Shown in pieces: positions 1 through 18,409 of a stretch of DNA of 41,900 nucleotides. The notes below the pieces were generated by a model. The model was not told where the DNA came from, ran no database searches, and saw only the letters and a program-made list of their open reading frames with translations. This DNA is from a virus (lineage: Duplodnaviria; Heunggongvirae; Uroviricota; Caudoviricetes): IMG/VR virus record IMGVR_UViG_3300028960_000080, positions 1 to 41,900 of that record; one strand, written 5' to 3'. Every line of letters starts with the position of its first letter. The stretch's first letter is position 1. A program made the translations under genes and the position numbers.

Positions 1-1284
1 TTACTTCTTCGCCTCTGCAACCACTTTGCTACCCACGCCGCGGTTATTGTATTCCCACATGCGGTTGTAGTTAGTGTCATTCAGATTGCGTTGTATTTCG
101 TCGTTATCATCAACGCTGCCGGTGTTACCCGCAAACGGACGATTAGAGATCACCGCATCAGCCCAGGGTTTGGCTGTGTTAAAACCTTCGTTGATGGCGC
201 TATCACGGATCACCACCTGACCGTTGGTATTGGCATCAACATCCAGCGAGCGACCCAGTTGCGCCACGCCATCACCGGAAGCATTGAAACGGCTGTTTAC
301 GGCGAGGAAACCGTAATAGATGTTAGACAGCGTAGCCGGTGCAAACACATACGCTTCTTGCTGAGTACGTGAGTTCACCACGCGGAATTCGGTGTTATCG
401 AACACCACTGCGCCGCGACCAGAAACGATATCCACATCCCCTTCAATGTAACTGTTGGTCACCAGAGTACGCGGCTGACGGTTGGTTTCCAGACGGTTTT
501 GCACACCACTGTTGGTGACAAAGAAGGTATTCTGACGACCGAGAATGTTGACGTTATTGATCTGCACTTTGTCACCATCAGTACGCAGTGCCACCGCCGG
601 ATGGTTACCCGCATCTACGCTATCGCCCAGCGTGTTTTCGATGGTCAGATTTTGCAGTTGCAGGCCATTGTTTTGTGACCAGAAGACCGCAGAGCAGAGA
701 ACACCGATACTGTCGCTGCGTTTGCTCTGGCAGCTATCGTACATATACCACGCTGGTTTACCTGGCATATATTTGCCGCGCGGGTTGACGTCGTGACGCC
801 AGTCGGCAGGGCTCATGCCCCCATCAAGGGAAAGCCCAATCTTCACATCAATCGGTTTTTCACCTGTACCGTACAGAGTAATTCCACCCGGAGCGGCAGG
901 GACATACACCGTTCCCTGATACTCACCAGGCATCACGGCAATATACTGGCGCTTGTTGGTGCGCTTGATAATTGCCGCATCTACCGCCGCCTGAATCGTG
1001 GTATGCGTTACACCTTGAGTACCCGCCGGGCCGACAACAAAGTCAGGTTGCGCAGGCAGGGTAATCGGGGAAGGATTCCACGCTGCCGCACCTGGTGTCA
1101 GGGATGCAAAATAGTGTTGAGCATCGAAATTCTGCGCTTCTTTTGCCGACAGAATCGGGCGAGAAGAGGTACCAGGCGCGGTTTGATCAGAAGGACGTTG
1201 ATCGGGCGGTGTTGAGCTACAGGCGGTCAGCGTCACGCCAAAAGCCAATGCCAGCGCCAGACGGGAAACTGAAAATGTGTTCAC
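1..1284 (-). CDS. ybhC: Host pectinesterase-family outer-membrane lipoprotein YbhC (complete, 427 aa)
   Basis: Full-length ORF with lipoprotein signal (LTACSS); recognised as the gene flanking attB-lambda in E. coli; stop codon at 1..3 on the minus strand. Confidence 0.85.
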   Translation of the reverse strand: MNTFSVSRLALALAFGVTLTACSSTPPDQRPSDQTAPGTSSRPILSAKEAQNFDAQHYFASLTPGAAAWNPSPITLPAQPDFVVGPAGTQGVTHTTIQAAVDAAIIKRTNKRQYIAVMPGEYQGTVYVPAAPGGITLYGTGEKPIDVKIGLSLDGGMSPADWRHDVNPRGKYMPGKPAWYMYDSCQSKRSDSIGVLCSAVFWSQNNGLQLQNLTIENTLGDSVDAGNHPAVALRTDGDKVQINNVNILGRQNTFFVTNSGVQNRLETNRQPRTLVTNSYIEGDVDIVSGRGAVVFDNTEFRVVNSRTQQEAYVFAPATLSNIYYGFLAVNSRFNASGDGVAQLGRSLDVDANTNGQVVIRDSAINEGFNTAKPWADAVISNRPFAGNTGSVDDNDEIQRNLNDTNYNRMWEYNNRGVGSKVVAEAKK

Positions 1285-1330
1285 AGGTTGCTCCGGGCTA
1301 TGAAATAGAAAAATGAATCCGTTGAAGCCT

Positions 1331-1345
1331 GCTTTTTTATACTAA
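1331..1345. other. attL: attL core (GCTTTTTTATACTAA), followed by lambda-like P' arm up to int
   Basis: Exact match to the lambda att core; identical copy at 41319..41333; downstream sequence (TCAGTCAAAATAAAATCATTATTTG...) matches what I recall of the lambda attP arm. Confidence 0.9.
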
Positions 1346-1418
1346 GTTGGCATTATAAAAAAGCATTGCTTATCAATTTGTTGCAACGAACAGGTCACTA
1401 TCAGTCAAAATAAAATCA

Positions 1419-2489
1419 TTATTTGATTTCAATTTTGTCCCACTCCCTGCCTCTGTCATCACGATACTGTGATGCCATGGTGTCCGACTTATGCCCGAGA
1501 AGATGTTGAGCAAACTTATCGCTTATCTGCTTCTCATAGAGTCTTGCAGACAAACTGCGCAACTCGTGAAAGGTAGGCGGATCCCCTTCGAAGGAAAGAC
1601 CTGATGCTTTTCGTGCGCGCATAAAATACCTTGATACTGTGCCGGATGAAAGCGGTTCGCGACGAGTAGATGCAATTATGGTTTCTCCGCCAAGAATCTC
1701 TTTGCATTTATCAAGTGTTTCCTTCATTGATATTCCGAGAGCATCAACATGCAATGCTGTTGGGATGGCAATTTTTACGCCTGTTTTGCTTTGCTCGACA
1801 TAAAGATATCCATCTACGATATCAGACCACTTCATTTCGCATAAATCACCAACTCGCTGCCCGGTAACAACAGCCAGTTCCATTGCAAGTCTAAGCCAAC
1901 ATGGTGATGATTCTGCTGCTTGATAAATTTTCAGGTATTCGTCAGCCGTAAGTCTTGATCTCCTTACCTCTGATTTTGCTGCGCGAGTGGCAGCGACCGG
2001 GTTTGTTGTTATATGGCCTTCAGCTATTGCCTCTCGGAATGCATCGCTCAGTGTTGATCTGATTAACTTGGCTGACGCCGCCTTGCCCTCGTCTATGTAT
2101 CCATTGAGCATTGCTGCAATTTCTTTTGTGGTGATGTCTTCAAGTGGAACATCAGGTAGCCCCCTCCTTATTGCTTTAATTTTGCTCATGTAATTTATAA
2201 GTGTCTTCTGCTTGATTCCTCTGCTGGCGAGGATTTTTTCGTAGCGATCAAGCCATGAATGTAACGTAACAGAATTATCACTGTTGATTCTCGCTGTCAG
2301 AGGCTTGTGTTTGTGTCCTGAAAATAACTCAATGTTTGCCTGTATTGCTTCAGTAATTGCTATCCTCCTGTCTCTGCCTAATCCGAACTCTTTACCCGTC
2401 CTTGGGTCCCTGTAGCAGTAATATCCATTGTTTCTTATATAAAGGTTAGGGGGTAAATCCCGGCGCTCATGACTTCGCCTTCTTCCCAT
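1419..2489 (-). CDS. int: Tyrosine integrase, lambda Int (356 aa)
   Basis: Translation recognisable as lambda Int along its whole length (same 356-aa size; starts MGRRRSHERRDLPPNLYIRNNGYYCYRDPRTGKEF); adjacent to att core. Confidence 0.97.
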   Translation of the reverse strand: MGRRRSHERRDLPPNLYIRNNGYYCYRDPRTGKEFGLGRDRRIAITEAIQANIELFSGHKHKPLTARINSDNSVTLHSWLDRYEKILASRGIKQKTLINYMSKIKAIRRGLPDVPLEDITTKEIAAMLNGYIDEGKAASAKLIRSTLSDAFREAIAEGHITTNPVAATRAAKSEVRRSRLTADEYLKIYQAAESSPCWLRLAMELAVVTGQRVGDLCEMKWSDIVDGYLYVEQSKTGVKIAIPTALHVDALGISMKETLDKCKEILGGETIIASTRREPLSSGTVSRYFMRARKASGLSFEGDPPTFHELRSLSARLYEKQISDKFAQHLLGHKSDTMASQYRDDRGREWDKIEIK

Positions 2490-2685
2490 TTCTGATCCTC
2501 TTCAAAAGGCTACCTGTTACTGGTCGATTTAAGTCAACCTTTACCGCTGATTCGTGGAACAGATACTCTCTTCCATCCTTAACCGGAGGAGGGAATATCC
2601 TGCATTCGCGCACCCATCGACGAACTGTTTCAAGGCTTCTTGGGCGTCGCTGGCGAGCGTTCCACTCCTGAAGTGTCAAGTACAT
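2467..2685 (-). CDS. xis: Excisionase Xis (72 aa)
   Basis: Internal Met of ORF 2467..2775 gives MYLTLQEWNARQRRPRSLETVRRWVRECRIFPPP..., recognisable as lambda Xis; overlaps int start as in lambda. Confidence 0.9.
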   Translation of the reverse strand: MYLTLQEWNARQRRPRSLETVRRWVRECRIFPPPVKDGREYLFHESAVKVDLNRPVTGSLLKRIRNGKKAKS

Positions 2686-2799
2686 CGCAAAGTCTCCGCA
2701 ATTACACGCAAGAAAAAGCCGCATTGATGCGGCGATGGTAGGTCTGGATATCATTGAGCAATGAACAGGCCTCATCGAGTGTGAGGCTGTATGACTCTA

Positions 2800-3105
2800 T
2801 TATTTCACCTCTTGTTGTGACATTGTTGAAAAATGGATACCAGCTCGTTGCTGCCAGATGATCCAACCGAGAGTCATATCCCATGCCATGTATTCGTTAT
2901 CGCCGTTTTTTGCTCTCCGACGATCTACTAAGTCACCGAAACGCTTTTCCATGAATAATTCATAAGCTTCGCGTTCATCTGGTTCTACTTCCAGAGATAG
3001 GAGTGCGATTTCATAAGCACGGCGCTCAATATCGTCTCGCACGTCAAGGCTGCTGATACGCTCTTTAATTTCTTTAATCAGTTCTTTGTCGGTAAAAGTG
3101 GTCAT
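2800..3105 (-). CDS. Hypothetical early-left protein (101 aa, acidic)
   Basis: Uninterrupted ORF co-oriented with the leftward operon; its start overlaps the stop of the upstream gene by 1 nt. Confidence 0.5.
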   Translation of the reverse strand: MTTFTDKELIKEIKERISSLDVRDDIERRAYEIALLSLEVEPDEREAYELFMEKRFGDLVDRRRAKNGDNEYMAWDMTLGWIIWQQRAGIHFSTMSQQEVK

Positions 3106-3467
3106 TATGCTCCAGCCTCCGGTGCTTTTGGCATTACTGCCCAGTGAGTGATATTGACGTTTTCAAGGTCCCCGACCTGAAATGTCCACTGCCATTCTCC
3201 GGTTTCTTTTTGTCCCCTGGTGTACCAGAGAGAACGCCAGCCAATTAGCCAGCCTTCTCCGTTAGCATCGAATAACAAAACACTTTCATTTGCTGGTGGC
3301 AGTTCAGTTGACACTGGTATTACTTTGTTTTCCTGTGCTGCACATTTAGCTTCAAGCGCATCGAATTTACGCACCAGGTATTCAGCATCCGTTTCATTCA
3401 CTTTCAGATCTCGCGGTACACATTTCCCGCGAAGAAACCCTTCCATTTCGAAAACATTCATGCGCAT
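3105..3467 (-). CDS. Hypothetical early-left protein (120 aa)
   Basis: ORF in the leftward operon, overlapping the stop of the HD-domain gene; Trp-rich C-terminal half. Confidence 0.55.
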   Translation of the reverse strand: MRMNVFEMEGFLRGKCVPRDLKVNETDAEYLVRKFDALEAKCAAQENKVIPVSTELPPANESVLLFDANGEGWLIGWRSLWYTRGQKETGEWQWTFQVGDLENVNITHWAVMPKAPEAGA

Positions 3468-3994
3468 TTGCGTAACTCCGATAATTCGTTAAAGCGTTCC
3501 ATAAACATCCCGTAGGCATGGCCTGGAGCTAGTGGAATCACGTTGAACATCTCTGTTGCCGGGATACCTTCCAGCACAGGCCAGAAAGAGCCATCATCAA
3601 GCCCGAGATCGCGGCGTTCGGTTGCCAGCATGATGAGATCGGCATATTTCACGGGGGTACTCATAACCGGGGGTAACCCGTATTTCTCACGGATTACGGC
3701 GTCTATTTTTTCTTCCATCCGTTTATAGTCAGGAAGAAGGCGTTTCAGTGGCGCCGGGATGTCCTGGCAATATGCTTCTGTTGCATCATGCATTAACGCT
3801 TCAAAAGCAAATTCCTGCGGTACCAGTTGGCTGCAAAGCACCGCATGTTGGGCAACGCTGTAGAAATGTGAAAGATGTCCTGCAAAGCGACAGATATTTG
3901 AAAGAGAAACCGCGATATCGTTAATAACGATGTCGTCTTTATTTATCCTGTCATAATAAAAATGCTTCCCGGAAAAAGTTTTAATAAATGACAT
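3458..3994 (-). CDS. HD-domain phosphohydrolase (YfdR-like 5'-deoxynucleotidase family)
   Basis: HD-domain metal-binding signatures (H...HD...H...D pattern, e.g. LMHDATEAY); start set at the ATG at 3994, which has a GGAGAA Shine-Dalgarno, rather than the GTG at 4021. Confidence 0.75.
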   Translation of the reverse strand: MSFIKTFSGKHFYYDRINKDDIVINDIAVSLSNICRFAGHLSHFYSVAQHAVLCSQLVPQEFAFEALMHDATEAYCQDIPAPLKRLLPDYKRMEEKIDAVIREKYGLPPVMSTPVKYADLIMLATERRDLGLDDGSFWPVLEGIPATEMFNVIPLAPGHAYGMFMERFNELSELRKCA

Positions 3995-4087
3995 TTTGTT
4001 CTCCACGTATATGCGCTGCACCGCGCTGAGTTCTGGTAAAAGGAAGCCCTCACCATCCGGCGATTATTGAGTCAATTACGTTTCCAT

Positions 4088-4109
4088 AAATGCCCCCGCA
4101 GGGGCATTT
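4088..4109 (-). terminator. Perfect 9-bp stem / 4-nt loop hairpin directly downstream of the DUF2303-like gene (intra-operon attenuator or RNA-stability element)
   Basis: AAATGCCCC-CGCA-GGGGCATTT seen in sequence; only a short U-tract follows on the minus strand, so terminator function is uncertain. Confidence 0.3.
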
Positions 4110-4121
4110 GCAGTAATGAAA

Positions 4122-4946
4122 TCAGGCGGTGAAAGTACCAATAAAGGTTTCTACTTTGCTGTCCTTGAATTTCTCAACAAGCAGATCACGAAATTCGTTA
4201 GCCATTTCTTCCTGCACTGCTTCCAGCTGAATAATGCGCAGAACCAGTACAGGACGATCGCCAGTGATAATGCTGAGGCGTAATTTAAACGGACGTTCTT
4301 TCAGGCCTTCAAACGGAACGCATTTAAATTCAAATGCCACAGGCATAATATCTTTGGTCTTCGCTTCGACAGACTCCATCAGGGAGCGTTTGCCGCTGAA
4401 GTCATTGTCTTCAAAATCAGCGGTCTGGTTTGCTTCAATCGTGATTTTACGGACTGCCGCAGCCGCTTTTGTTGCCTGAATAGCATCACCATTAGCATCA
4501 AAGCCCACAAGGTAGTCGGCCCAGTCTTCGAGCCATTCTGCCAGTGACTTCTGGTAGTTACGCTCACCGTTAACAGACAACAGGGCAGAGAACGGTGCTG
4601 TCTTTTTCAGTTTGAGAGTGGCGGTGTTATCTGCGTGACCTGGTTCATCAATAGTACCCAGGTTAAGTACACTGACGGCACGCATATTATCAGCATCGAT
4701 AAAGCAGCGGGTGCCTTCATCTGCAAGATCTTTAGAATAACGGGTAAAGTCATCGATGCTGGCAGTGGAAAGCGCACCACGGAAACGGAAGCGATTTAAA
4801 TTAAATTTTTCCAGATCATGAATGCGGAAATTCTCAGGCAATGCCACAGCATCGGCACCAATCTTACTGATAATTTCATTAACACCCTGAGCAGAAATAA
4901 GGGCATGGATTTGATTAATTGCGGTTGCGTCTAAGTTCTGAGACAT
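4122..4946 (-). CDS. YfdQ-like (DUF2303-family) phage protein, 274 aa
   Basis: ORF with GAGGA Shine-Dalgarno; resembles the YfdQ family of SfV/CPS-53-like prophages (family assignment from memory). Confidence 0.65.
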
Positions 4947-5011
4947 AATAAGTCCTCACTATATAAAGATATTCAGTGATGAGATAAATAATCAGTTAAT
5001 TAAGAACGATA

Positions 5012-5374
5012 TTAATGACCTGCTGCGCGTAATTTTCCGTCAGGCTCACCGGCAAGAGTCAGTAATTGTCCCTGGTCTTCCTGCAGAATAGTCAGGCGAC
5101 CACCGCGATTGACATACATCGGCGTTTCGGTGGTGTCTTCTTCGGAAATTTTCCCGCGGTTAGTCGGGCGAACATATGAGAGTTTGTGTTTGATTTTCAC
5201 ACGGTTCTCATCAAATGGTTCGATTTCCAGGTTGAGTGAGACCTTACCTTTGGTTTTCGTGTTCATCACACCGGAAGCGACTTCACTGAGAACTGCGCCG
5301 ATTTTGGTTTCAAATACGCCGCCGTCCAGCTCCCCGATAAATGCCTGCACATCAGTACTGCGTTCGCTAGCCAT
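5012..5374 (-). CDS. Hypothetical early protein (120 aa); start set at the internal ATG with a GAGGAG Shine-Dalgarno
   Basis: The 226-aa track ORF has a GC-rich, Arg/Cys-rich N-terminal extension with no ribosome-binding site; the ATG at 5374 is preceded by GAGGAGCAGCAAA. Confidence 0.6.
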   Translation of the reverse strand: MASERSTDVQAFIGELDGGVFETKIGAVLSEVASGVMNTKTKGKVSLNLEIEPFDENRVKIKHKLSYVRPTNRGKISEEDTTETPMYVNRGGRLTILQEDQGQLLTLAGEPDGKLRAAGH

Positions 5375-5399
5375 TTTGCTGCTCCTCATCATATCGACC

Positions 5400-5700
5400 C
5401 TGCAAGGTCGGTTGGTTTCTCCACAAAACAGAGAAGAACACCTGCGGTGGCAGCCGCCCGGATGGATTGGGTTATGAGCCCGTCGTCCGGTGATGCTCTT
5501 CTCTGTTTTGTAAAAAGGACGGTACCAGCCGGAAGCAAGGGTACAAACTGGTACCGCCAGGACTACACACAGCATAAAGTTGTGGTGCCTGGTGCCTCCC
5601 GGTGCCTGGCGAAGGTTGCACACCAGACGGGTGGGTATCCACAGAAGGTCGACTGTCAGCCTCAACCTTAACCCGCGTGCGCTGAGCCGCATTCACCACA
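5400..5700. other. GC-rich structured non-coding region (candidate cis-acting RNA or sRNA) within the leftward early operon
   Basis: Perfect 15-bp inverted repeat 5423..5437 / 5497..5511; 9-bp inverted repeat 5520..5528 / 5548..5556; three GGTGCCT copies at 5584..5607; no ORF with a credible ribosome-binding site. Confidence 0.4.
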
Positions 5701-5811
5701 ACGCCAAGGATTCTCTTTGGTTGAAAATACTTAGCTGTTATGTGCCTGTCTTTTCACCACTTCAGGCTCGGTGGTATCCTTTTAAGCCCGTATACATAAA
5801 AGGAAAATCAA

Positions 5812-6057
5812 ATGACTTTTGATGAAAAAGAACTTGATAATGCAATTAATAAAATCATCGTAACGTCGCTCTTTTCCTGTCTCAGCGACACTCAGCAGAA
5901 ACAGTTCTACGAATCGGCTTTCAACATGATCGAGAGTTGTTGTTTCTGCGATGCCGACGAGTTACCTGAAATAATCAGGAAACAGTTGGCTGATGCTCTT
6001 CGAGTGCGACTTTCTGACCAATTTTCTGAAATGTGCTCTCCGAATTTGGACAAATAG
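5812..6057 (+). CDS. Hypothetical small acidic protein (81 aa), rightward, AT-rich
   Basis: ATG preceded by AAAAGGAAAA; converges on and overlaps the 91-aa minus-strand ORF by 83 nt, so one of the two may be spurious. Confidence 0.35.
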   Translation: MTFDEKELDNAINKIIVTSLFSCLSDTQQKQFYESAFNMIESCCFCDADELPEIIRKQLADALRVRLSDQFSEMCSPNLDK

Positions 6058-6250
6058 AAAAAGGCCATTTCCATTCAGGGTCTGATGGAAATACTTCAGC
6101 CTGTTCCAAAGCACGGCGTAAAGAGAATACAACTCCAGCCATAGCCTGATGTTTCCCATTGGTCCAGCTATCGCCGCTCTGATCTACAGGAGCGGCTATG
6201 TCGTATGACCAAACGACTTCACCACTATTGTTTAAAATCTGGACTTTCAT
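5975..6250 (-). CDS. Hypothetical small protein (91 aa)
   Basis: Strong GGAGG Shine-Dalgarno 8 nt upstream of ATG; co-oriented with cI and the early-left operon. Confidence 0.5.
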   Translation of the reverse strand: MKVQILNNSGEVVWSYDIAAPVDQSGDSWTNGKHQAMAGVVFSLRRALEQAEVFPSDPEWKWPFSICPNSESTFQKIGQKVALEEHQPTVS

Positions 6251-6258
6251 TTTGTTCT

Positions 6259-6480
6259 TTAACCTCCAGATTTCCGCGCATCTAAAGGTGCATTCTCATT
6301 TGGTGTGAACTGAATAGTTGTGCTGATATTGATTAATGCTCCGACACACAAGACTACGCACTCAGAGCAGATAGCAACTTCATCTTTTCCGCCTTTGGCG
6401 ATGATTTTTTTTGCCTGCAGCTCGTTTGCGCCACAAAACGAGCATGTGAAATAACGGTTCATTTGCGCTCTCTTACACAT
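6259..6480 (-). CDS. Small ClpX-type C4 zinc-finger protein (73 aa)
   Basis: CSFCG...(19 aa)...CSEC spacing matches the ClpX N-terminal zinc-binding domain; first gene downstream of the putative pL. Confidence 0.6.
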   Translation of the reverse strand: MCKRAQMNRYFTCSFCGANELQAKKIIAKGGKDEVAICSECVVLCVGALINISTTIQFTPNENAPLDARKSGG

Positions 6481-6646
6481 AGTATTTAACGAATCATCCG
6501 GTCATCCATACGCCACCGGCGGCTACTTCGTGGGCGTCCTGCCTGTTCGTTATCTTTGACATAAAATCTAACTTAACTTAGTTATTATGGCAAGAGAAAA
6601 CACCAAACTTTTCTTAGTTCGGTGCCTTAGTTAGAGAAGAGAGGTC
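6481..6646 (-). promoter_or_regulatory. Candidate oL/pL region
   Basis: Palindrome CTAACTTAACTTAG (6567..6580) resembles the oR palindrome; minus-strand TTGCCA (6592..6587) - 16 nt - TAGATT (6570..6565) overlaps it. Confidence 0.45.
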
Positions 6647-7273
6647 TTAGAGTTCGTATTGAACTCCTTTGACTACACCAATGATAAGGCAATTACCATT
6701 GATAGGGATGTTGGGATACCGAGGATTTAATGGCACTAAAAACTTTTGAGGGCCATCGATGACTAATTTTTTTACTGTAGCTTCGTTTGTTCCATCAAGT
6801 CGAGCGATGACTATTTTTCCATGACGAGGTTCTGCATCTGGATCTACAATCACTGTTGCGCCTTCTGGTATTGTTGGGAGGCCATTAGGGTTAGTCATGG
6901 AGTCACCTTTAACCTCTAATGCAAATGAGTTATCACCAATCTTTAATGATGTATCTACCCACTTGTCCACTTCACTAAACACTTCTGCTGCCCTGCACTC
7001 AGTAAACTGCCCAGCCTGAACCCACGATATTACAGGAACTCTGCGCATGTTTGTGACGAGTTTGCCTTCAAACTCAGCACCATAAAGAATGTAATCTATT
7101 GACGTATTGAAGAACTTCGCTAATTTCGAAAGTGCCTCCCCACCAGGGGTATTGATGTCTTTCTCCCAGTACCCCACAGCAACGTCGCTTACTCCACAAA
7201 ATTTACCCAATTCTTTCTGGGACGTTCTGGTAACTCTTCTCAGAGCTTTTATACGCTGACCAACCGTTTCCAT
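6647..7273 (-). CDS. cI: CI-type repressor (N-terminal HTH, C-terminal S24 LexA-like autopeptidase)
   Basis: HTH region (QKELGKFCGVSDVAVGYWE), GDSM serine motif and downstream Lys (VKKL) typical of S24 repressors; divergent from a cro-like gene. Confidence 0.9.
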   Translation of the reverse strand: METVGQRIKALRRVTRTSQKELGKFCGVSDVAVGYWEKDINTPGGEALSKLAKFFNTSIDYILYGAEFEGKLVTNMRRVPVISWVQAGQFTECRAAEVFSEVDKWVDTSLKIGDNSFALEVKGDSMTNPNGLPTIPEGATVIVDPDAEPRHGKIVIARLDGTNEATVKKLVIDGPQKFLVPLNPRYPNIPINGNCLIIGVVKGVQYEL

Positions 7274-7370
7274 AGGAGCACCATTTCTTGAATTGCTAAG
7301 TAATCTTAGTTTTTATTGACCAAAGATAGATTTGTAATTAGCATCTAATAAAACTTAGTTTGGAGGGCGT
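7274..7370. promoter_or_regulatory. oR/pR/pRM immunity switch region
   Basis: Divergent cI/cro arrangement; palindromes CTAAGTAATCTTAG (7296..7309) and CTAATAAAACTTAG (7345..7358); TTGACC (7316..7321) as candidate pR -35; GGAGGG Shine-Dalgarno before cro. Confidence 0.6.
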
Positions 7371-7571
7371 ATGACAACTGACGATATCGAAAGCTACTTC
7401 GGCAGTATTGAGAAAGTTGCTGCTTTTTTCGGCATAACAACTGAAGCCGTTTATCAGTGGCGAAACCGTCCGGGCCAGTTAATTCCAAAAGGACGTGCAG
7501 CAGAAGCTGCATATAGAACTTGCGGACGGTTGCCATTTAAACCTGAGCTTTATGAAAAATCTAATGGATAA
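7371..7571 (+). CDS. cro: Cro-like HTH regulator (YdaS-like), 66 aa
   Basis: Small HTH protein (AAFFGITTEAVYQWRNR) divergently transcribed from cI. Confidence 0.75.
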   Translation: MTTDDIESYFGSIEKVAAFFGITTEAVYQWRNRPGQLIPKGRAAEAAYRTCGRLPFKPELYEKSNG

Positions 7572-8166
7572 ATCGATTAACAGAAACCACAGAACGATGA
7601 GGCTAACCGTGGGTAAGCATCACTGGAAAGTAGAAAAACAGCCTGAGTGGTACGTGAAAGCTGTCAGAAAAACTATCGCAAAGTTGCCGGGTGGTTACGC
7701 TGAAGCAGCTGACTGGCTGGATGTAACAGAGAACGCATTATTTAACCGCCTTCGTGCTGATGGCGATCAGATTTTCCCGCTGGGATGGGCAATGATTTTG
7801 CAACGTGCTGGTGGAACTCACTTCATTGCTGATGCTGTGGCGCAGTCTGCTAATGGCGTCTTTGTGTCTCTTCCTGACGTCGAGGATGTGGACAACGCCG
7901 ATATTAACCAGCGTCTGCTGGAAGTCATTGAACAGATCGGCAGTTATTCAAAACAGATTCGTTCAGCAATCGAAGACGGTGTAGTGGAACCGCATGAGAA
8001 GACAGCAATTAACGACGAGCTGTATCTCTCAATTTCGAAGCTGCAGGAGCATGCAGCACTTGTCTACAAAATTTTTTGCATTTCAGAAAGTAATGACGCC
8101 CGCGAGTGTGCAGCTCCGGGCGTCGTGGCGTCGATTGCTTCTGGTTGTGGAGAAACTAACGCATGA
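7495..8166 (+). CDS. YdaT-like protein occupying the cII position (start uncertain)
   Basis: ORF following cro; resembles the ydaS-ydaT pairing of Rac-like prophages; the track start is a GTG overlapping cro and alternative ATGs lack a clear ribosome-binding site. Confidence 0.55.
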
Positions 8167-8501
8167 ACAGTTTAACAACACACTACCGTCGCTCGCAACT
8201 GATTGCGCTTCCTGTACCGGGTGGAAAAGCGAAGGTGGAGTATTGCTATGCAGTAAATGTACCAGGTGACAGGGAAATTGTAACCCACAGCTTTGCAGAG
8301 TGGGCTGTGGGTGATTTCAACCGGCAGAAGGAGACAGTCCTTTGCGACAAGTTAACCGCTGGTTCAAAGATCACTACGGAGTGCCCGTCAGAGTCATTCG
8401 TTGGGAGCCGGAAACACAACGGGTTATCTACCTCCGCGAAGGCTATGAGCATGAGTGCTTCAGTCCGCTCGAACAGTTTCGTCGTAAATTCAGGGAAATA
8501 G
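8163..8501 (+). CDS. Hypothetical protein (112 aa), possibly frameshifted or partly spurious
   Basis: ATGA overlap with the upstream gene suggests coupling, but the C-terminal third is Ser-rich low complexity while an alternative frame encodes a protein-like sequence. Confidence 0.35.
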
Positions 8502-13164: not shown

Positions 13165-13181
13165 TTTGGTGGAGAAAGTTG

Positions 13182-13535
13182 ATGTGTGATATGTATGAAG
13201 TATTAGACCGTTGGGGAGCGTGGGCTGCGGCAGAGAACAGTGGTGTGGATTGGCAACCGGTAGCCGCTGGCTTCAAGGGGCTTTTACCTCATGGCAGAAA
13301 GTCCCGGATTCAGTGCGATGATGATGAAGGCATCATGATTGATGGCTGTGTCGCCCGCCTGCGGAAGTATAAACCAGAAGAATATGAGCTGATCATTGCT
13401 CATTTTGTGATTGGTATCTCATTACGCACCATTGCTAAGAAAAGAAAATGCTCTGATGGAGCAATTAGAAAAGAGCTTCAGGGAGCTATAGGGTTTATAT
13501 CAGGTATTCTATTATTGTTAGGCGAAGCCCTCTAG
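13182..13535 (+). CDS. Q: Late antiterminator Q (phage 82 / QuuD type)
   Basis: VLDRWGAWAA...AAGFKGL...RIQCDDD...GCVARLRK closely resembles DLP12 QuuD as I recall it; ATG at 13182 with GGAGA Shine-Dalgarno. Confidence 0.8.
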   Translation: MCDMYEVLDRWGAWAAAENSGVDWQPVAAGFKGLLPHGRKSRIQCDDDEGIMIDGCVARLRKYKPEEYELIIAHFVIGISLRTIAKKRKCSDGAIRKELQGAIGFISGILLLLGEAL

Positions 13536-13545: not shown

Positions 13546-14586
13546 TTAAAGTGATGCGATGATAGCCCTTCCAAGAGCTTCAGCCATCTTGGGAGGGACT
13601 GCATTCCCTATCTGTTTGGCTTTCGAGACTAAAGAGCCTGTGAAGGAATAGTCTAATGGGAAAGTCTGTAATAACGCAGCCTCTCTAACAGAAATAGCCC
13701 TATCTTGCTCTGGATGTCCGAAACGTCCATTCGAATAGCTTATACATCTAGTTGTTAATCCACTTGCTGGTTTGTCCCAAGAAAGCCGTCCATAAACATC
13801 AGTATGCCCTTTATATTTTTTATGGCATTTTAGTATAAGTTCTTCAGGCCAAGATTCTCTACCTTTTCCCTCAGGAGTCGCTTTAATACGTTTAATATTT
13901 AGATCAGATAGTTTGGCTGCTGTATGATCCATAACATCTTTATGAGTTTCACCGGCAGCAATAGGAGGTAATCCGCCGATCCAGTCTCTGACAGTTGCAT
14001 ACGGAGTTTTTAACCCATCATGAGTTTGTGATGGAAGCTTAATATTCGTGTGTTTTGACGCCAGTAAAACAAAACGTTCACGTGTTTGAGGAACCCCGAA
14101 CCACAACGCAGGAATCACACCAAAATCAACGTTGTAGTGATGATGTGCTAAAACCTCAAGAAATTTCTGGAAATTTCCATTGTTAATATCGACATTTTGG
14201 ATTCCTGGTACATTCTCTACCAGTACAAAGTCTGGCGTATAATAAGAGACAAACCGTGCAAACTCAGTAAGCAGATCTTTTCTCGGATCATCCTCGTTCC
14301 GTATTTTATTTTGTTTCGAGAATGGTTGACATGGAGCACAACCACAAAATAGGGTTAGAGCTTTGCTTTGTGTTGACGCACAAACCAGATGCTTAATTTC
14401 CTCAACGTGTGTATCTTTGATATCACCATTGATAAAATGTGCAAATGGATTATTCATTTTAAAGGTGTTAGCGGAATCTAGATCAATATCTAAACCGAAA
14501 ATAATTTCCATTCCCACCGCTTTTAGGCCTACACTGGTTCCGCCGCAGCCGGAAAAGAAATCGTAAACGTGTATCTTTTTAGCCAT
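13546..14586 (-). CDS. DNA cytosine-C5 methyltransferase (Dcm-like)
   Basis: Canonical C5-MTase motifs in order: I (DFFSGCGG), IV (GCAPCQPFS, catalytic Cys), VI (LVENV), VIII (QTRERFVLL); AT-rich by eye. Confidence 0.92.
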   Translation of the reverse strand: MAKKIHVYDFFSGCGGTSVGLKAVGMEIIFGLDIDLDSANTFKMNNPFAHFINGDIKDTHVEEIKHLVCASTQSKALTLFCGCAPCQPFSKQNKIRNEDDPRKDLLTEFARFVSYYTPDFVLVENVPGIQNVDINNGNFQKFLEVLAHHHYNVDFGVIPALWFGVPQTRERFVLLASKHTNIKLPSQTHDGLKTPYATVRDWIGGLPPIAAGETHKDVMDHTAAKLSDLNIKRIKATPEGKGRESWPEELILKCHKKYKGHTDVYGRLSWDKPASGLTTRCISYSNGRFGHPEQDRAISVREAALLQTFPLDYSFTGSLVSKAKQIGNAVPPKMAEALGRAIIASL

Positions 14587-14589
14587 TAT

Positions 14590-16380
14590 CTACCTCACTC
14601 TTGGTCTGATAGTATCATTATCTAAAAAGATTTGCAGCAACTCTCGAGTTTTTGTTAACACTTCATGATTATTTGGTATTTTATTAAGAATTCTGATTTG
14701 TGTTTCAAAGATATCGTCACTGGTAACGTTCTCCAACCCTGTGTCTAACTTACAAAGTTCTTTGGTGATTTCTTTAGCATCTTGAATGTTTTTGGGGATT
14801 TGATCTTTATATTCTTTATAATCACCATGAACATTCTCAATAAGAAATGCTTCAGGAGTATAAACAGGAAGAAAAGCAATTTTATCGTGGATGAAATCGA
14901 TAAAATTTCTTTGCATTGTGTATTTTTGATTGTTATTTGATGAGCCATTAGAACCATCACAACTAAATTTTATATCCTGATTGGTTATTTCTTTTATGAT
15001 GTTTTGAAGGTTTGTGTTTTGATTTTCTGGTATGGAATCAGAAGTTGGATAATCATCAGTTCTCGATTGGTCACCATCTAATAAGAAAATAACGTTTTTA
15101 ACATTGGCAACACATAAAGGCACAGCCAAAGTTTGAAGAATACTTCCCGCTCCTCCAGGAACATGTTTTACTTCGAAGGAGTTTAATAATGCTTCACCAC
15201 CCGCTTTAAGCGCCTTTTCTACAAACCTCTTCGCTAACCGATCTTCTACAATAACGGTTCTTTTATCAATGCGTTCACCAAGAATAAAGAAAGATTCTTC
15301 TGGACTGACATTTTGAAGAACATCAACCTTTCCTATTTTATCATTCAGACAGAATAATTTTATGGCATTTTTAGGCAAGTCTTTTACTATTGTTGATGAA
15401 TGTGTGGATATGACAATTTGATGTTTCTTTTTAAGTGCTTGTTCTGATAAAAATTCCATCAATTGACATTGAGCAGAAGGGTGAAGTGATACTTCAGGTT
15501 CATCTAGCAGAATTAAAGATGCATCAGGGCTATCCATTAGTTTATGCACTAATATAGATACAGCAAATTCCCCACTGCCTGCGAAAGCTTCAGAATATTT
15601 TAAGTTTTCTGATTGAAGAATAATTGTGGGAGCTTTGTCATTAGTGAATAAGCTATGTTCAATAAGGCGGATGCTTGTGTATTTGCGACCTAAAATCTTG
15701 CTGATTGCCTCTACCTTACTTTTTTCTAATAAAGTGTTAACAAATAGCTTGTCTTTTTTTCCTTTATGAGGTTGATATTTTTTAAGATCGTTATCTATAA
15801 TGTCTTTTAGCATCTGACTGCGTTTTCTAAGATAATCTTTCTTAGGGTATGTATGAAAATCAGAGTGATAAAAGAACTTATCAAATGCACTGATAGTTGC
15901 TCTGAAATCTAAATATATTACATTTTTGTCAATAGCTTTCCACCTGGTCCTTAGTTGATTGGTTGAGATTTTTGTACTAGGCATTGGAGCCATGTTGTCG
16001 GATTTTAATGGTCTGGATGGTTCCCAGTAATCAGGATCATTTTCTTTAGAGATTCGAGTTTTAATTACTTCAACAATTGAATCAGTAGCTTTGTCATAAT
16101 ATCCATAAATAAATCTAGAACGACCACCATCTTTAATCTCATCTACATCTGTAGAAAACCATAAGCTACCCAGAGAATAGTTGTTTGGAGAACCGAATAG
16201 GGCTCTTAAAACAGAACTTTTATTGGTTCCGTTTTGACCAACTAATGCTGTAATTGGATACTCAAAATCAATCTTGCTACCCTCTGCAAGGTTTTTAAAA
16301 AAAGGAAAACGAATATGTCTAATAAATGGCTCAATTTTAGACGATGCCATAATTTTCTTTAGTTTTAATTCTGTGCTCAT
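14590..16380 (-). CDS. ABC-type ATPase fused to a TOPRIM-like nuclease domain (OLD-family-like / fused PARIS-like), 596 aa
   Basis: Walker A (GQNGTNKSS), Walker B (LILLDEPEVSLHP), H-loop (ISTHS) in the N-terminal half; C-terminal TVIVED and FLLDGDQ fit the TOPRIM Glu and DxD motifs; 3-nt gap to the methyltransferase gene; start could instead be the ATG at 16350. Confidence 0.8.
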   Translation of the reverse strand: MSTELKLKKIMASSKIEPFIRHIRFPFFKNLAEGSKIDFEYPITALVGQNGTNKSSVLRALFGSPNNYSLGSLWFSTDVDEIKDGGRSRFIYGYYDKATDSIVEVIKTRISKENDPDYWEPSRPLKSDNMAPMPSTKISTNQLRTRWKAIDKNVIYLDFRATISAFDKFFYHSDFHTYPKKDYLRKRSQMLKDIIDNDLKKYQPHKGKKDKLFVNTLLEKSKVEAISKILGRKYTSIRLIEHSLFTNDKAPTIILQSENLKYSEAFAGSGEFAVSILVHKLMDSPDASLILLDEPEVSLHPSAQCQLMEFLSEQALKKKHQIVISTHSSTIVKDLPKNAIKLFCLNDKIGKVDVLQNVSPEESFFILGERIDKRTVIVEDRLAKRFVEKALKAGGEALLNSFEVKHVPGGAGSILQTLAVPLCVANVKNVIFLLDGDQSRTDDYPTSDSIPENQNTNLQNIIKEITNQDIKFSCDGSNGSSNNNQKYTMQRNFIDFIHDKIAFLPVYTPEAFLIENVHGDYKEYKDQIPKNIQDAKEITKELCKLDTGLENVTSDDIFETQIRILNKIPNNHEVLTKTRELLQIFLDNDTIRPRVR

Positions 16381-16411
16381 TTTTTATACTGAAATGGTTG
16401 CAAGGTAATGT

Positions 16412-16440
16412 ATTTTACGAAAATGCTAACGCGTACGCAA
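16412..16440 (-). promoter_or_regulatory. Candidate sigma-70 promoter for the Q-S cassette (TTGCGT - 17 nt - TAAAAT)
   Basis: Read on the minus strand: -35 at 16440..16435, -10 at 16417..16412, about 30 nt upstream of the ATG at 16380. Confidence 0.4.
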
Positions 16441-16485
16441 AAATCATTGTAATCTGTTAAGAGTGGTTACTTCGCCACACAGCTT

Positions 16486-16515
16486 AAACCCGCCGTCGAG
16501 CGGGTTTTGTCGTTT
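16486..16515 (+). terminator. tR'-like intrinsic terminator upstream of the lysis genes (end of a short late leader RNA)
   Basis: CCCGC-CGTCGA-GCGGG hairpin followed by TTTTGTCGTTTC on the plus strand; no upstream plus-strand gene nearby; position matches lambda pR'-6S-tR' architecture. Confidence 0.55.
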
Positions 16516-16659: not shown

Positions 16660-16986
16660 ATGCCTCATAACCCAAATACCTGGCTGGAGTTGGTCCAGAG
16701 CTGGTGGCGTGGAGACACACCGCTGGGCGCAGTGATTATGTCGATTGTTATGGCTGGTTTACGTATCGCCTATTTTGGCGGTGGTGGCGGCTGGAAGCGA
16801 AAAACACTCGAAATTCTACTCTGTGGCGCTCTGACGCTGACTTTTGCATCCGCTCTTGAGTATGTCGGATGGCCTAAATCACTATCTGTTGCCATTGGTG
16901 GTGGGGTGGGGCTGATCGGTGTCGATGCTATTCGTGGGGCTGCAATGCGAGTAATCGGTAACAAATTTGGTGGCTCTAAGGAGTAA
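16660..16986 (+). CDS. Putative holin (108 aa)
   Basis: Small hydrophobic protein with Gly-rich membrane segments immediately upstream of the endolysin; not lambda S-like. Confidence 0.65.
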   Translation: MPHNPNTWLELVQSWWRGDTPLGAVIMSIVMAGLRIAYFGGGGGWKRKTLEILLCGALTLTFASALEYVGWPKSLSVAIGGGVGLIGVDAIRGAAMRVIGNKFGGSKE

Positions 16987-17466: not shown

Positions 17467-17842
17467 GCTGGTTATCGCTGCTTTCTTCGTTACTGTCATT
17501 GGTTCTTTCATCTGGTCAGCCAACCACTACTACAGCAAATATCAGTACGAAAAGAAACGTGCTGATGAGGCTGTACGAAATGCTGGATCAGCAACAGCCA
17601 TTACCAATAACGTCCTGCAATCACTGCAAATCGTCAATACAGTACTGGAGGCTAACCAGCATGCAAAACAGCAGATCGCACTGGAGTCACAAAGAACCCA
17701 GGAAGATATCAAAATGGCCGTTGCGGATGATGATTGTGCTTCACGTCTTGTGCCTGCTGCCGCTGCTGAGCGGTTGCGGAAGTATGCGGACAGTTTACGT
17801 GAACACTCCGACGGTACCACTGCCAGCCAGCCTGACGGCTGA
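17450..17842 (+). CDS. Spanin inner-membrane subunit (Rz-like)
   Basis: N-terminal transmembrane helix then coiled-coil-like region; overlaps the endolysin stop; contains the Rz1 start in +1 frame. Confidence 0.75.
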   Translation: MKLSYKLVIAAFFVTVIGSFIWSANHYYSKYQYEKKRADEAVRNAGSATAITNNVLQSLQIVNTVLEANQHAKQQIALESQRTQEDIKMAVADDDCASRLVPAAAAERLRKYADSLREHSDGTTASQPDG

Positions 17843-17996
17843 AACCCCTCAGCCTGATTTACCTGATCATTTTACGTGGGGCTCGAGCTTAGATCTGAAT
17901 GCCGCCTTGTTGTCTGCATTGGCGCAGTGTAATACCGATAAAGCTGACATCAGAAGGATTGAAGTTGAGCGTGGTCACATCATGCAAAAAAAATGA
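17727..17996 (+). CDS. Spanin outer-membrane lipoprotein subunit (Rz1-like), overlapped architecture
   Basis: Internal ATG of track ORF 17499..17996 gives MMIVLHVLCLLPLLSGC with lipobox LLSGC; Pro-rich mature part; starts inside Rz and extends past it. Confidence 0.7.
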   Translation: MMIVLHVLCLLPLLSGCGSMRTVYVNTPTVPLPASLTAETPQPDLPDHFTWGSSLDLNAALLSALAQCNTDKADIRRIEVERGHIMQKK

Positions 17997-18088
17997 TGTT
18001 CACTTTATTTTGTTCCTTGATTTGATATGTGATGACCCAATAGATACAAAGCACCTGATTTGGGTGATTTTTTTGAAGGACTATACAC

Positions 18089-18409
18089 ATGAAAGACGGC
18101 ATTTATTTTGTTGTGTTCAGAAGCGGTCATAATGATGTTGGCAATGGCACGGTCGTTGTGAAGGATAATGCGGTTAATGGTGGTGATTTTGGGTTTACCT
18201 ATCAGGGGCGTGTACAAGATGGGGTATTGAAACTTCATGTATCCCGCCATAACCCTTCAGCACAAAACGTTATTGCAGGCCTTAACGATTATGTGATGGA
18301 TCTCTCTGTGAGAGATATTGGGGATGGTTATTACCTTGAAGGTGGAATTGCTGGTGTTCCTGGTGCGACTCTGTCTGTACAGGCGAAATTTATCGGCAAT
18401 TTGATTTAA
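18089..18409 (+). CDS. Hypothetical protein (106 aa) between lysis and packaging modules
   Basis: ORF followed by a strong intrinsic terminator; no recognisable motif. Confidence 0.5.
   Translation: MKDGIYFVVFRSGHNDVGNGTVVVKDNAVNGGDFGFTYQGRVQDGVLKLHVSRHNPSAQNVIAGLNDYVMDLSVRDIGDGYYLEGGIAGVPGATLSVQAKFIGNLI

Follow-up and report, generated by a model that had tools for sequence, protein, structure and literature searches.

Conserved pairing of an OLD-like ABC-ATPase/TOPRIM protein with a C5 cytosine methyltransferase: a probable defence cassette between the Q and holin genes of a tailed virus

Location and layout of the cassette

The subject of this study is a small insert (positions 13546-16440) in the tailed virus IMGVR_UViG_3300028960_000080 (Caudoviricetes), of which a stretch of 41,900 nt, hereafter the window, was analysed. 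The insert, a cassette of ~2.9 kb, consists of exactly two minus-strand genes and fills the gap between the genes for antiterminator Q and the holin (Table 1). One of them encodes a fusion of an ABC ATPase with a TOPRIM nuclease domain, as in the nucleases of the OLD family, and the other a C5 cytosine DNA methyltransferase. What appeared to be a single odd gene pair is a conserved, widespread two-gene module present in about a dozen phyla. Because the same two genes recur together across these phyla, the cassette is probably an undescribed defence unit, in which an OLD-family effector is combined with the logic of restriction-modification (R-M).

An initial annotation, made from the sequence of the window, had described two AT-rich minus-strand genes between Q and the holin, and the open reading frames (ORFs), coordinates and GC content all turned out as claimed. 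The GC content of the cassette is 0.359 overall vs. 0.511 for the remaining window, and locally it is 0.30-0.40 compared with ~0.50-0.58 in the flanks. The genes are tightly packed. The TAG stop codon of the ATPase gene, the nucleotides ATA and the ATG start codon of the methylase gene directly follow one another, in agreement with the 3-nt separation noted at the outset, and the Shine-Dalgarno sequence of the methylase gene (GAGG, 8 nt 5' of the ATG) falls within the end of the ATPase gene. The start of the ATPase gene is ambiguous between M1 and M11 (16350), and both 596-aa and 586-aa forms are found in public records.

The ATPase/TOPRIM protein

The upstream protein matches the Pfam families AAA_15 (8e-16) and AAA_21 (2e-13). 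Among the PADLOC defence profiles the best match was HEC-04 (2e-36), and ATPase-Toprim_I-B (1e-24) covered residues 40-488. RefSeq/PGAP labels the protein as 'ATP-dependent nuclease', and in PHROGs it is assigned to phrog_3940 of 'unknown function' (6e-67). As expected of an ABC ATPase, the N-terminal part carries Walker A, a signature-like motif (FAGSGE), Walker B and an H-loop (ISTHS, residues 324-328, with H327); all the motifs quoted in the initial annotation were found in the translations of both proteins. When 30 homologues were aligned, the most distant of them with 43% identity, the residues K54, D293, E294, H327, E379, D435, G436 and D437 proved invariant, and so did the FAGSGE motif and G48, N50, G51 and N53 of Walker A. 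The Walker B region aligned with TsOLD, PtuA, AriA and GajA in a sequence search of PDB. The motifs DPDYWEPSRP, TRW and DFRxxxSAFDKFFYH are likewise invariant and specific to the clade of ~600-aa ATPases.

A TOPRIM fold with the conserved Glu and DxD is predicted for the C-terminal part, where the corresponding motifs are TVIVED (residues 375-380) and FLLDGDQ (residues 432-438). The AlphaFold2 model of the protein (predicted local distance difference test 87.4) had TsOLD (6p74; 3.8e-14) and GajA (1.4e-12) as its best full-length Foldseek matches, and OLD nucleases were also among the best structural matches at the domain level. The part of the HEC-04 profile containing E319, D375 and D377, the residues that were mutated in experiments on HEC-04, aligns to residues 368-524, and the C-terminal domain alone matched the profile at 1.9e-6. 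No Pfam TOPRIM family was found in residues 366-596 by hmmscan at E-values up to 10, where the sole match was a non-significant one to DpnI_C; the TOPRIM assignment therefore rests on structure and the HEC-04 profile. Of the checks proposed along with the initial annotation, the profile search thus recovered the C5 methylase and AAA_15/AAA_21 families and no TOPRIM family in Pfam, and the structure prediction led to OLD nucleases. On the invariant catalytic residues, the HEC-04 profile and the structural matches, the upstream protein is an OLD-like ABC-ATPase/TOPRIM fusion, as had been proposed, and its nuclease activity is predicted.

The ATPase is conserved over most of its length and only the last ~80 residues vary, column conservation being 0.16-0.31 in the C-terminal region vs. 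0.6-0.75 in the ATPase core. The tblastn alignments at the GHKL-type and HpaII-type loci described below often end near residue 510. Within this region a three-helix segment (residues 550-591; 14593-14718) gave the non-significant match to the helix-turn-helix (HTH) domain of DpnI_C (E 0.083). The C-terminal HTH domain of DpnI binds methylated DNA. The region may be a partner-binding or DNA-binding module, with a mere hint of DNA contact.

The methylase

The downstream protein matches Pfam DNA_methylase (PF00145) at 3e-59 over residues 6-343, NCBIfam dcm (TIGR00675) at 9e-42, and the PADLOC profiles MTase_II (7e-91) and DruM (4e-82). Motifs I, IV, VI, VIII, IX and X are all present, with FSGCGG, PCQ, ENV and QTRER readable in the translation and the catalytic Cys of PCQ encoded at 14329..14331 (-). 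Judged by these matches, the protein is a full-length C5 cytosine methyltransferase, and this part of the initial annotation held as well. The domain assignments of both proteins are thereby established and their catalytic residues are intact. A homologue with 67% identity carries the name 'M.HgiDII' in one source, which is an automatic name only. In the methylase subfamily the target-recognition region is conserved, too.

Vsr endonuclease repairs the T:G mismatches that result from deamination of 5-methylcytosine (5mC). A Vsr gene was found in 19 of the 84 related loci introduced below, and as these genes accompany the pair, the methylase is expected to act on DNA. We also weighed whether the methylase might act on tRNA in the manner of Dnmt2 and so shield it from a tRNase of the TOPRIM type, and discarded the idea in view of the Vsr genes, which indicate 5mC in DNA.

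On plasmids, sister methylases with 40-46% identity are paired with other effectors (L091 3498-6570; L092 3468-6183; L093 566-3373; L094 3495-6380), which are either HATPase_c_3 (GHKL) proteins or a DUF262/GmrSD_N protein together with a MAE_28990 HEPN nuclease. Both the GHKL and the DUF262+HEPN combinations have been described as R-M-like (PMC2292703, PMC3710099). It looks as though non-canonical NTPase/nuclease partners converge on this methylase subfamily as a hub.

Conservation of the gene pair

Patterns derived from the ATPase alignment were used to scan GTDB with one genome per species, and 80 loci with 35-53% identity were obtained. They span Pseudomonadota, Acidobacteriota, Actinomycetota, Bacillota, Bacteroidota, Ignavibacteria, Nitrospirota and others, with further carriers in Desulfobacterales, Bdellovibrionales, Patescibacteria and Lentisphaerae. 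A C5 methylase was found with phmmer, using the methylase of the window as the query, in 78 of the 80 loci, and in the remaining two the contig breaks off at the ATPase gene. IMG/VR, scanned independently, yielded 62 loci of viral or prophage origin. Of these, 56 have the methylase next to the ATPase and 4 have it 0.7-4.6 kb away; it is absent from 2 contigs, both of which stop at the ATPase gene. When the loci with room to show a neighbour are taken as evaluable (78 species genomes and 60 viral contigs), a C5 methylase stands next to or near the ATPase in 138/138 of them, in two independent collections. Adjacency is direct in 55 of 84 loci (the 80 loci and four from Escherichia coli), in 53 cases on the same strand, and either gene order occurs. 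The spacing is typically 0-30 nt, and many loci have a 4-nt gene overlap or a gap of <30 nt.

The linkage also holds in the opposite direction, since all three methylase homologues that were looked up have a ~600-aa AAA_15 gene immediately 5' (3/3). The one with 69% identity occupies another lambdoid Q-holin gap, with the ATPase gene directly upstream; that with 59% identity is from Burkholderia, beside integrase and inovirus genes, and that with 57% from Pseudomonas, beside a prophage repressor. The two proteins have diverged together, as seen from their pairwise identities across the loci (Mantel r 0.58, reached by 0 of 2000 permutations). The linkage of the pair is thus obligate, reciprocal and co-evolving across about a dozen phyla and prophages. 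Functional coupling of the genes, as suggested in the initial annotation, is borne out by this pattern together with the 4-nt overlaps.

The cassette is AT-richer than its flanks in 24 of the 28 loci with enough flanking sequence, a composition typical of mobile defence cargo. Among 5426 complete E. coli genomes, two alleles of the cassette, with ~72% DNA identity, were found in 8 and 10 genomes. In every case the two genes are together and chromosomal, and they reside in different lambdoid late-region backgrounds. In strains with the second allele, an additional 350-aa 'DNA-methyltransferase' gene and a small hypothetical gene on the plus strand separate the cassette from the essD holin gene (L003 7247-8653; L004 6884-8290). 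In Burkholderia cenocepacia the pair (L089 6078-11041) lies beside integrase, RepSA-like, secretin and Zot genes, and these filamentous-phage neighbours suggest that the cassette also travels with inovirus-like elements. No close homologues of the ATPase were found in the phage (50,697 records) or plasmid (72,556 records) collections, in which only distant stand-alone relatives occur.

Signs of decay were seen as well. The ATPase gene is broken and the methylase intact in 4 loci, and the converse was seen in none, although sequencing errors are possible. Two of the ATPase genes contain in-frame stops (L016 ~7030-7077; L074 6001-6360) and two contain frameshifts (L149 ~5935; L153 ~6025-6080).

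Variant architectures

Clustering of the neighbouring genes in the 84 loci revealed several architectures, the commonest of which is the two-gene core alone. In 12 loci, mostly from Bacteroidota, the operon comprises the methylase, a ~1000-aa GHKL/HEF_HK protein (domains HATPase_c_3, HEF_HK and HATPase_c), a ~550-aa Response_reg_2 protein, the ATPase and, in some cases, Vsr (L042, L047, L052, L057, L059, L061, L064, L068, L070, L074 and L083, at ~200-8200, and L082 with the inverted order). The operon looks like a two-component-like, R-M-associated system. A shorter HATPase_c_3 protein is found at ~6 loci. In a further 8 loci (L030, L032, L033, L037, L046, L060, L072 and L078) a M.HpaII-like methylase (~421 aa) and a HpaII-family restriction endonuclease (358 aa; PF09561, 2e-144) are followed by the ATPase, which can thus accompany a canonical Type II system with a different C5 methylase.

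Surroundings of the cassette in the window

The coordinates of the cassette and its surroundings are collected in Table 1. On the left the stop codons of the Q and methylase genes are 10 nt apart. On the right, at a distance of only ~50 nt from the start codon of the ATPase gene, lies a segment (16432..16508) that is ~91-95% conserved among lambda-like, SfII and Stx2a phages and that contains a strong terminator-like hairpin (16486..16507, plus strand; 8 pairs followed by a T-run). The segment may represent the late promoter/terminator region that is the target of Q, in which case the cassette would be flanked by Q on one side and by the late promoter on the other. As the cassette lies upstream of this conserved segment preceding the holin gene, Q probably does not control it, unlike stx.

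Table 1. Features of the cassette and of the adjoining regions in the window.
Feature	Position	Strand	Basis or detail
'AT' gene, 596-aa ABC ATPase fused to TOPRIM nuclease domain, OLD-like	14590..16380	-	ORF; nuclease activity predicted
'MT' gene, 346-aa C5 cytosine DNA methyltransferase	13546..14586	-	ORF
Spacer ATA (3 nt), from ATPase stop to methylase start	14587..14589	-	Sequence
Walker A / P-loop GQNGTNKSS, residues 48-56, K54	16213..16239	-	Invariant columns
Walker B and D-loop region LILLDEPEVSLHP, residues 289-301, D293, E294	15478..15516	-	Invariant columns
Predicted TOPRIM nuclease domain, residues ~370-510	14851..15273	-	E379 at 15244..15246; D435-G-D437 at 15070..15078
C-terminal helical region, residues ~520-596, most variable part	14593..14823	-	Column conservation
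Short region 5' of cassette, promoter-like TTGCGT-17-TAAAAT at 16440..16412	16381..16440	-	Sequence
Antiterminator Q gene, left boundary	13179..13535	+	Pfam Phage_antitermQ, 9e-44
Right boundary of insert, segment conserved 5' of holin in lambda-like phages	16432..16508	+	91% identity
Lambda-family holin gene, right flank	16660..16986	+	Pfam Phage_holin_3_1, 6e-25

A promoter had been assigned to TTGCGT-17-TAAAAT, and this part of the initial annotation stood only in so far as the sequence is present. The -35 hexamer matches 3/6 bases, the site scored under the threshold of the scanner, and promoter-like sites in the cassette region were not more frequent than in shuffled sequence.

In related phages this site 5' of the holin gene is occupied by different minus-strand genes. 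Phage D2 has a gene for an OmpD-like porin there (L095 1-827), and SfII has two hypothetical genes, named SfII_49 and SfII_50 (L096 1-1463). The Q-holin gap is therefore an exchangeable cargo slot, which agrees with the hotspot suggested in the initial annotation. A second AT-rich dip (17800-18400, GC 0.42-0.44) is found in the window directly after the Rz-like genes. It has small ORFs at 18005..18250 (-) and 18089..18409 (+), and at the equivalent position RefSeq annotates a minus-strand hypothetical gene (L001 10704-10988). The dip may be another small cargo gene.

Possible mode of action and alternative explanations

The reading that we favour, while regarding it as an evenly balanced call, is that of a mobile defence unit of two genes, operating in the manner of an R-M system and gated by methylation. 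The C5 methyltransferase would mark the DNA of the lysogen and the prophage with 5mC, and the ABC-ATPase/TOPRIM protein would be an ATP-dependent effector, restrained by methylation and released by unmethylated incoming DNA. Methylation status would be the signal in such a scheme. It could be read in two ways, either by the methylase serving as the DNA-recognition partner of the nuclease, like Mod for Res in Type III systems, or by the nuclease through its own variable C-terminal region. The former route is favoured, because the nuclease is without an obvious variable DNA-reading domain and can also sit beside the unrelated M.HpaII-like methylase. As to the substrate of the TOPRIM domain, DNA would match GajA and the OLD protein of retron-Eco8, and tRNA would match AriB and P2 Old. 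GajA and the retron-Eco8 OLD protein cut DNA, and AriB cuts tRNA. The R-M-like reading is drawn from the obligate and reciprocal linkage, the swappable nuclease partners, the mobile AT-rich nature of the cargo and the toxic defence relatives of the ATPase, with the one-sided decay of the ATPase gene as a suggestive sign.

Several observations weigh against this reading. In the 8 HpaII-type loci the ATPase is found beside a complete R-M pair and in ~18 loci beside GHKL modules, where it is not the sole candidate for restriction and may have an accessory role. The ATPase gene is 5' of the methylase gene, and nothing that would hold back expression of the nuclease is apparent. The 4:0 asymmetry of decay is not statistically significant, the sample being too small to serve as evidence alone. 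In addition, a 603-aa homologue with 28% identity, in which the ATPase and TOPRIM motifs are kept, is encoded by the Clostridium estertheticum plasmid pCEST-001D (L085 3890-5701) with no methylase nearby and with ~2 kb upstream that contain no ORF of >=80 aa; it is a stand-alone sister lineage. As this homologue, HEC-04 and IbfA stand alone, the methylase linkage defines the ~600-aa clade and not the whole group of fused ABC-TOPRIM proteins. Since these three act or exist alone, the ancestral logic would therefore be that of a stand-alone abortive-infection sensor-effector and not that of restriction.

In the main rival explanation, one that we consider unlikely but a genuine contender, the ATPase is a guard of the PrrC or PARIS type. 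The nuclease, possibly a tRNase, would be suicidal but latent, kept silent through contact with the methylase or an R-M-like module and fired when a phage factor disables or hijacks this partner; methylation itself would not be the signal. Relatives behave in this manner. AriA of PARIS senses anti-restriction proteins and frees the AriB tRNase (PMC11464382), P2 Old acts as an abortive tRNase according to one report (10.64898/2026.07.10.737580), PrrC, also an ABC ATPase, lies within a Type I R-M locus (PMC3710099), and a role as back-up effectors of BREX has been suggested for OLD-ABC modules (PMC12839542). HEC-04, too, was discovered inside Hma, a system that contains a methylase, and it gives defence as a single gene. 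The presence of the ATPase inside complete R-M-like operons, whether HpaII endonuclease plus methylase or GHKL plus receiver plus Vsr, points in the same direction, and the co-divergence and the variable C-terminus are compatible with protein-protein contact. The commonest form of the cassette, including that of the window, offers only a lone methylase to guard, however, and the constancy of the C5 partner, one conserved subfamily with a conserved target-recognition region, is left unexplained. Nor is a phage factor that inhibits Type II C5 methylases known to us, which counts against a guard.

The ABC ATPase superfamily also includes MutS, Rad50 and UvrA. The protein might accordingly be a genome-maintenance accessory, in which the ABC ATPase senses T:G mismatches or trapped methylase-DNA adducts and the TOPRIM domain nicks for repair, cutting the cost of the methylase. 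Such a role is compatible with the universality of the pairing across C5 methylases, but we regard it as improbable, given that the characterised close relatives are all toxic defence effectors, that Vsr and the ATPase co-occur and do not replace each other, that the cassette is AT-rich mobile prophage cargo, and that it is the ATPase gene that is mutated away while the methylase stays. The alternative offered in the initial annotation was two independent morons, an orphan anti-restriction methylase and a stand-alone OLD-like exclusion gene, brought together by an insertion hotspot. The unrelated minus-strand cargo at this site in D2 (porin) and SfII and the existence of stand-alone ATPase relatives would fit with it, yet the co-occurrence in every evaluable locus, across about a dozen phyla and many genomic contexts, the reverse look-ups, the co-divergence, the 4-nt overlaps and the movement of both E. 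coli alleles as a pair make it hardly credible. Independence of the two genes is in practice refuted, and effectively excluded, by the conservation of the pair.

Significance of the pairing

OLD-family nucleases are central to several defence systems solved in recent years, namely Gabija, PARIS, retron-Eco8 and P2 Old. A clade tied to a C5 methylase would offer a simple and genetically tractable switch for an OLD-type effector. Should the protein prove to be a genuine part of a restriction system, C5-based R-M would gain a new nuclease fold and a mechanism that depends on ATP. The methylation-gated unit, if true, would also account for the hundreds of 'orphan' Dcm-like methylases that are annotated beside 'AAA family ATPase' genes. 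The Q-holin gap of lambdoid prophages carries exchangeable defence cargo, which is relevant to the prediction of phage host range. In E. coli the practical impact is small, the cassette being rare there (18/5426 complete genomes).

The initial annotation knew of no described system with this pairing, and no description of an OLD-like/C5-methylase pair was found in the literature that could be searched by full text, although categorical novelty is not claimed. Two candidate precedents were rejected: the OLD-like gene in the PluTI paper belongs to a Gabija pair, and a Tn-seq preprint with an essential cytosine methylase concerns the MvaI and SmaI systems.

Comparison with known systems

Of the named relatives, HEC-04 (PADLOC PDLC04149), which is the best defence-profile match, and IbfA of IncI1 plasmids (PMC12111858) are closest to the ATPase. 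The defence by HEC-04 requires the Walker A lysine and the E/D/D residues of TOPRIM, and the protein is toxic when induced (10.1101/2024.01.29.577857). The Hma context of HEC-04 contains a methylase, just as the ATPase described here has a methylase as its neighbour. HEC-04 and IbfA, however, defend as single genes, whereas the ~600-aa clade is obligately linked to a C5 methylase. The similarity in the best match is also confined to a part of the proteins, residues 209-469 of the ATPase matching only positions 155-386 of the 494-position profile.

The layout of ABC ATPase plus TOPRIM, with the conserved Glu and DxD, is shared with the OLD family, and the classes of this family differ from the cassette in their partners. 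Class 1, represented by P2 Old, which cuts tRNA according to a 2026 preprint (10.64898/2026.07.10.737580), and by TsOLD (6P74), has no partner, whereas the cassette has the methylase. GajA of Class 2 (Gabija) has the UvrD-like helicase GajB adjacent, whereas the neighbours here are Q, the methylase and the holin; the matches of the GajA profile are limited to the Walker B region of the ATPase. Class 3 (retron-Eco8/type I-B) has a reverse transcriptase partner with a non-coding RNA, and no reverse transcriptase was found in the cassette or its flanks, the msr/msd non-coding RNA not having been searched for separately. In PARIS, which we take to be the fourth class of the 2023 review of the family, AriA and AriB are split and the TOPRIM is of the DUF4435 type, whereas one fused polypeptide is found here. 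The AriA profile matches the ATPase part only (2e-16). The 2023 classification comprises stand-alone, helicase-linked, retron-linked and fourth-class OLD proteins, none of which is methylase-linked (PMC10568477).

Other systems combine similar elements in different ways. A precedent for the combination is MADS, with the methylase Mad2, the ABC ATPase Mad3 and the DUF4276 TOPRIM-like nuclease Mad4 (PMC12065111). MADS has eight genes with separate ATPase and nuclease, compared with two genes in the cassette, and the match of NCBIfam MAD3 to the ATPase is weak and restricted to the ATPase core (0.0011, 18.3 bits vs. a cut-off of 420). PrrC and RloC, the templates for a guard, are similar in that a nuclease regulated by an ABC ATPase is tied to a DNA-modification locus; they differ in having a HEPN nuclease and a multi-subunit Type I/III partner instead of TOPRIM and a lone C5 methylase. 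The GHKL (paraMORC) and DUF262+HEPN modules use the same methylase subfamily (40-46% identity) with different effector families, and in Bacteroidota the GHKL module and the ABC-TOPRIM ATPase meet in one operon. No mention of an ABC-TOPRIM partner for C5 methylases was found in the searchable text of the papers on these R-M-like combinations (PMC2292703, PMC3710099).

The cassette resembles R-M systems of Types II and III, prophage-borne ones among them, in the tight linkage of a methylase to a nuclease, which in genetic terms is what is expected of R-M, in being mobile and AT-rich, and in keeping the methylase when the nuclease decays. Vsr often accompanies other C5 systems, as it does the cassette in 19 loci. 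The nuclease itself is different, an ABC ATPase-TOPRIM protein and not a PD-(D/E)xK, HNH, GIY-YIG or phospholipase D (PLD) enzyme or a Res protein of the superfamily 2 (SF2) helicases. We tentatively propose, with somewhat less than even confidence, an as yet unnamed R-M-like class, in which a C5 methylase would provide the self-mark, and perhaps recognition in the manner of Mod for Res, and an OLD ABC-ATPase/TOPRIM protein would be the ATP-dependent effector. It would be a minimal two-gene module that occurs in about a dozen bacterial phyla and travels with prophages, a fifth, methylase-linked class of OLD proteins and the first TOPRIM-based restriction enzyme.

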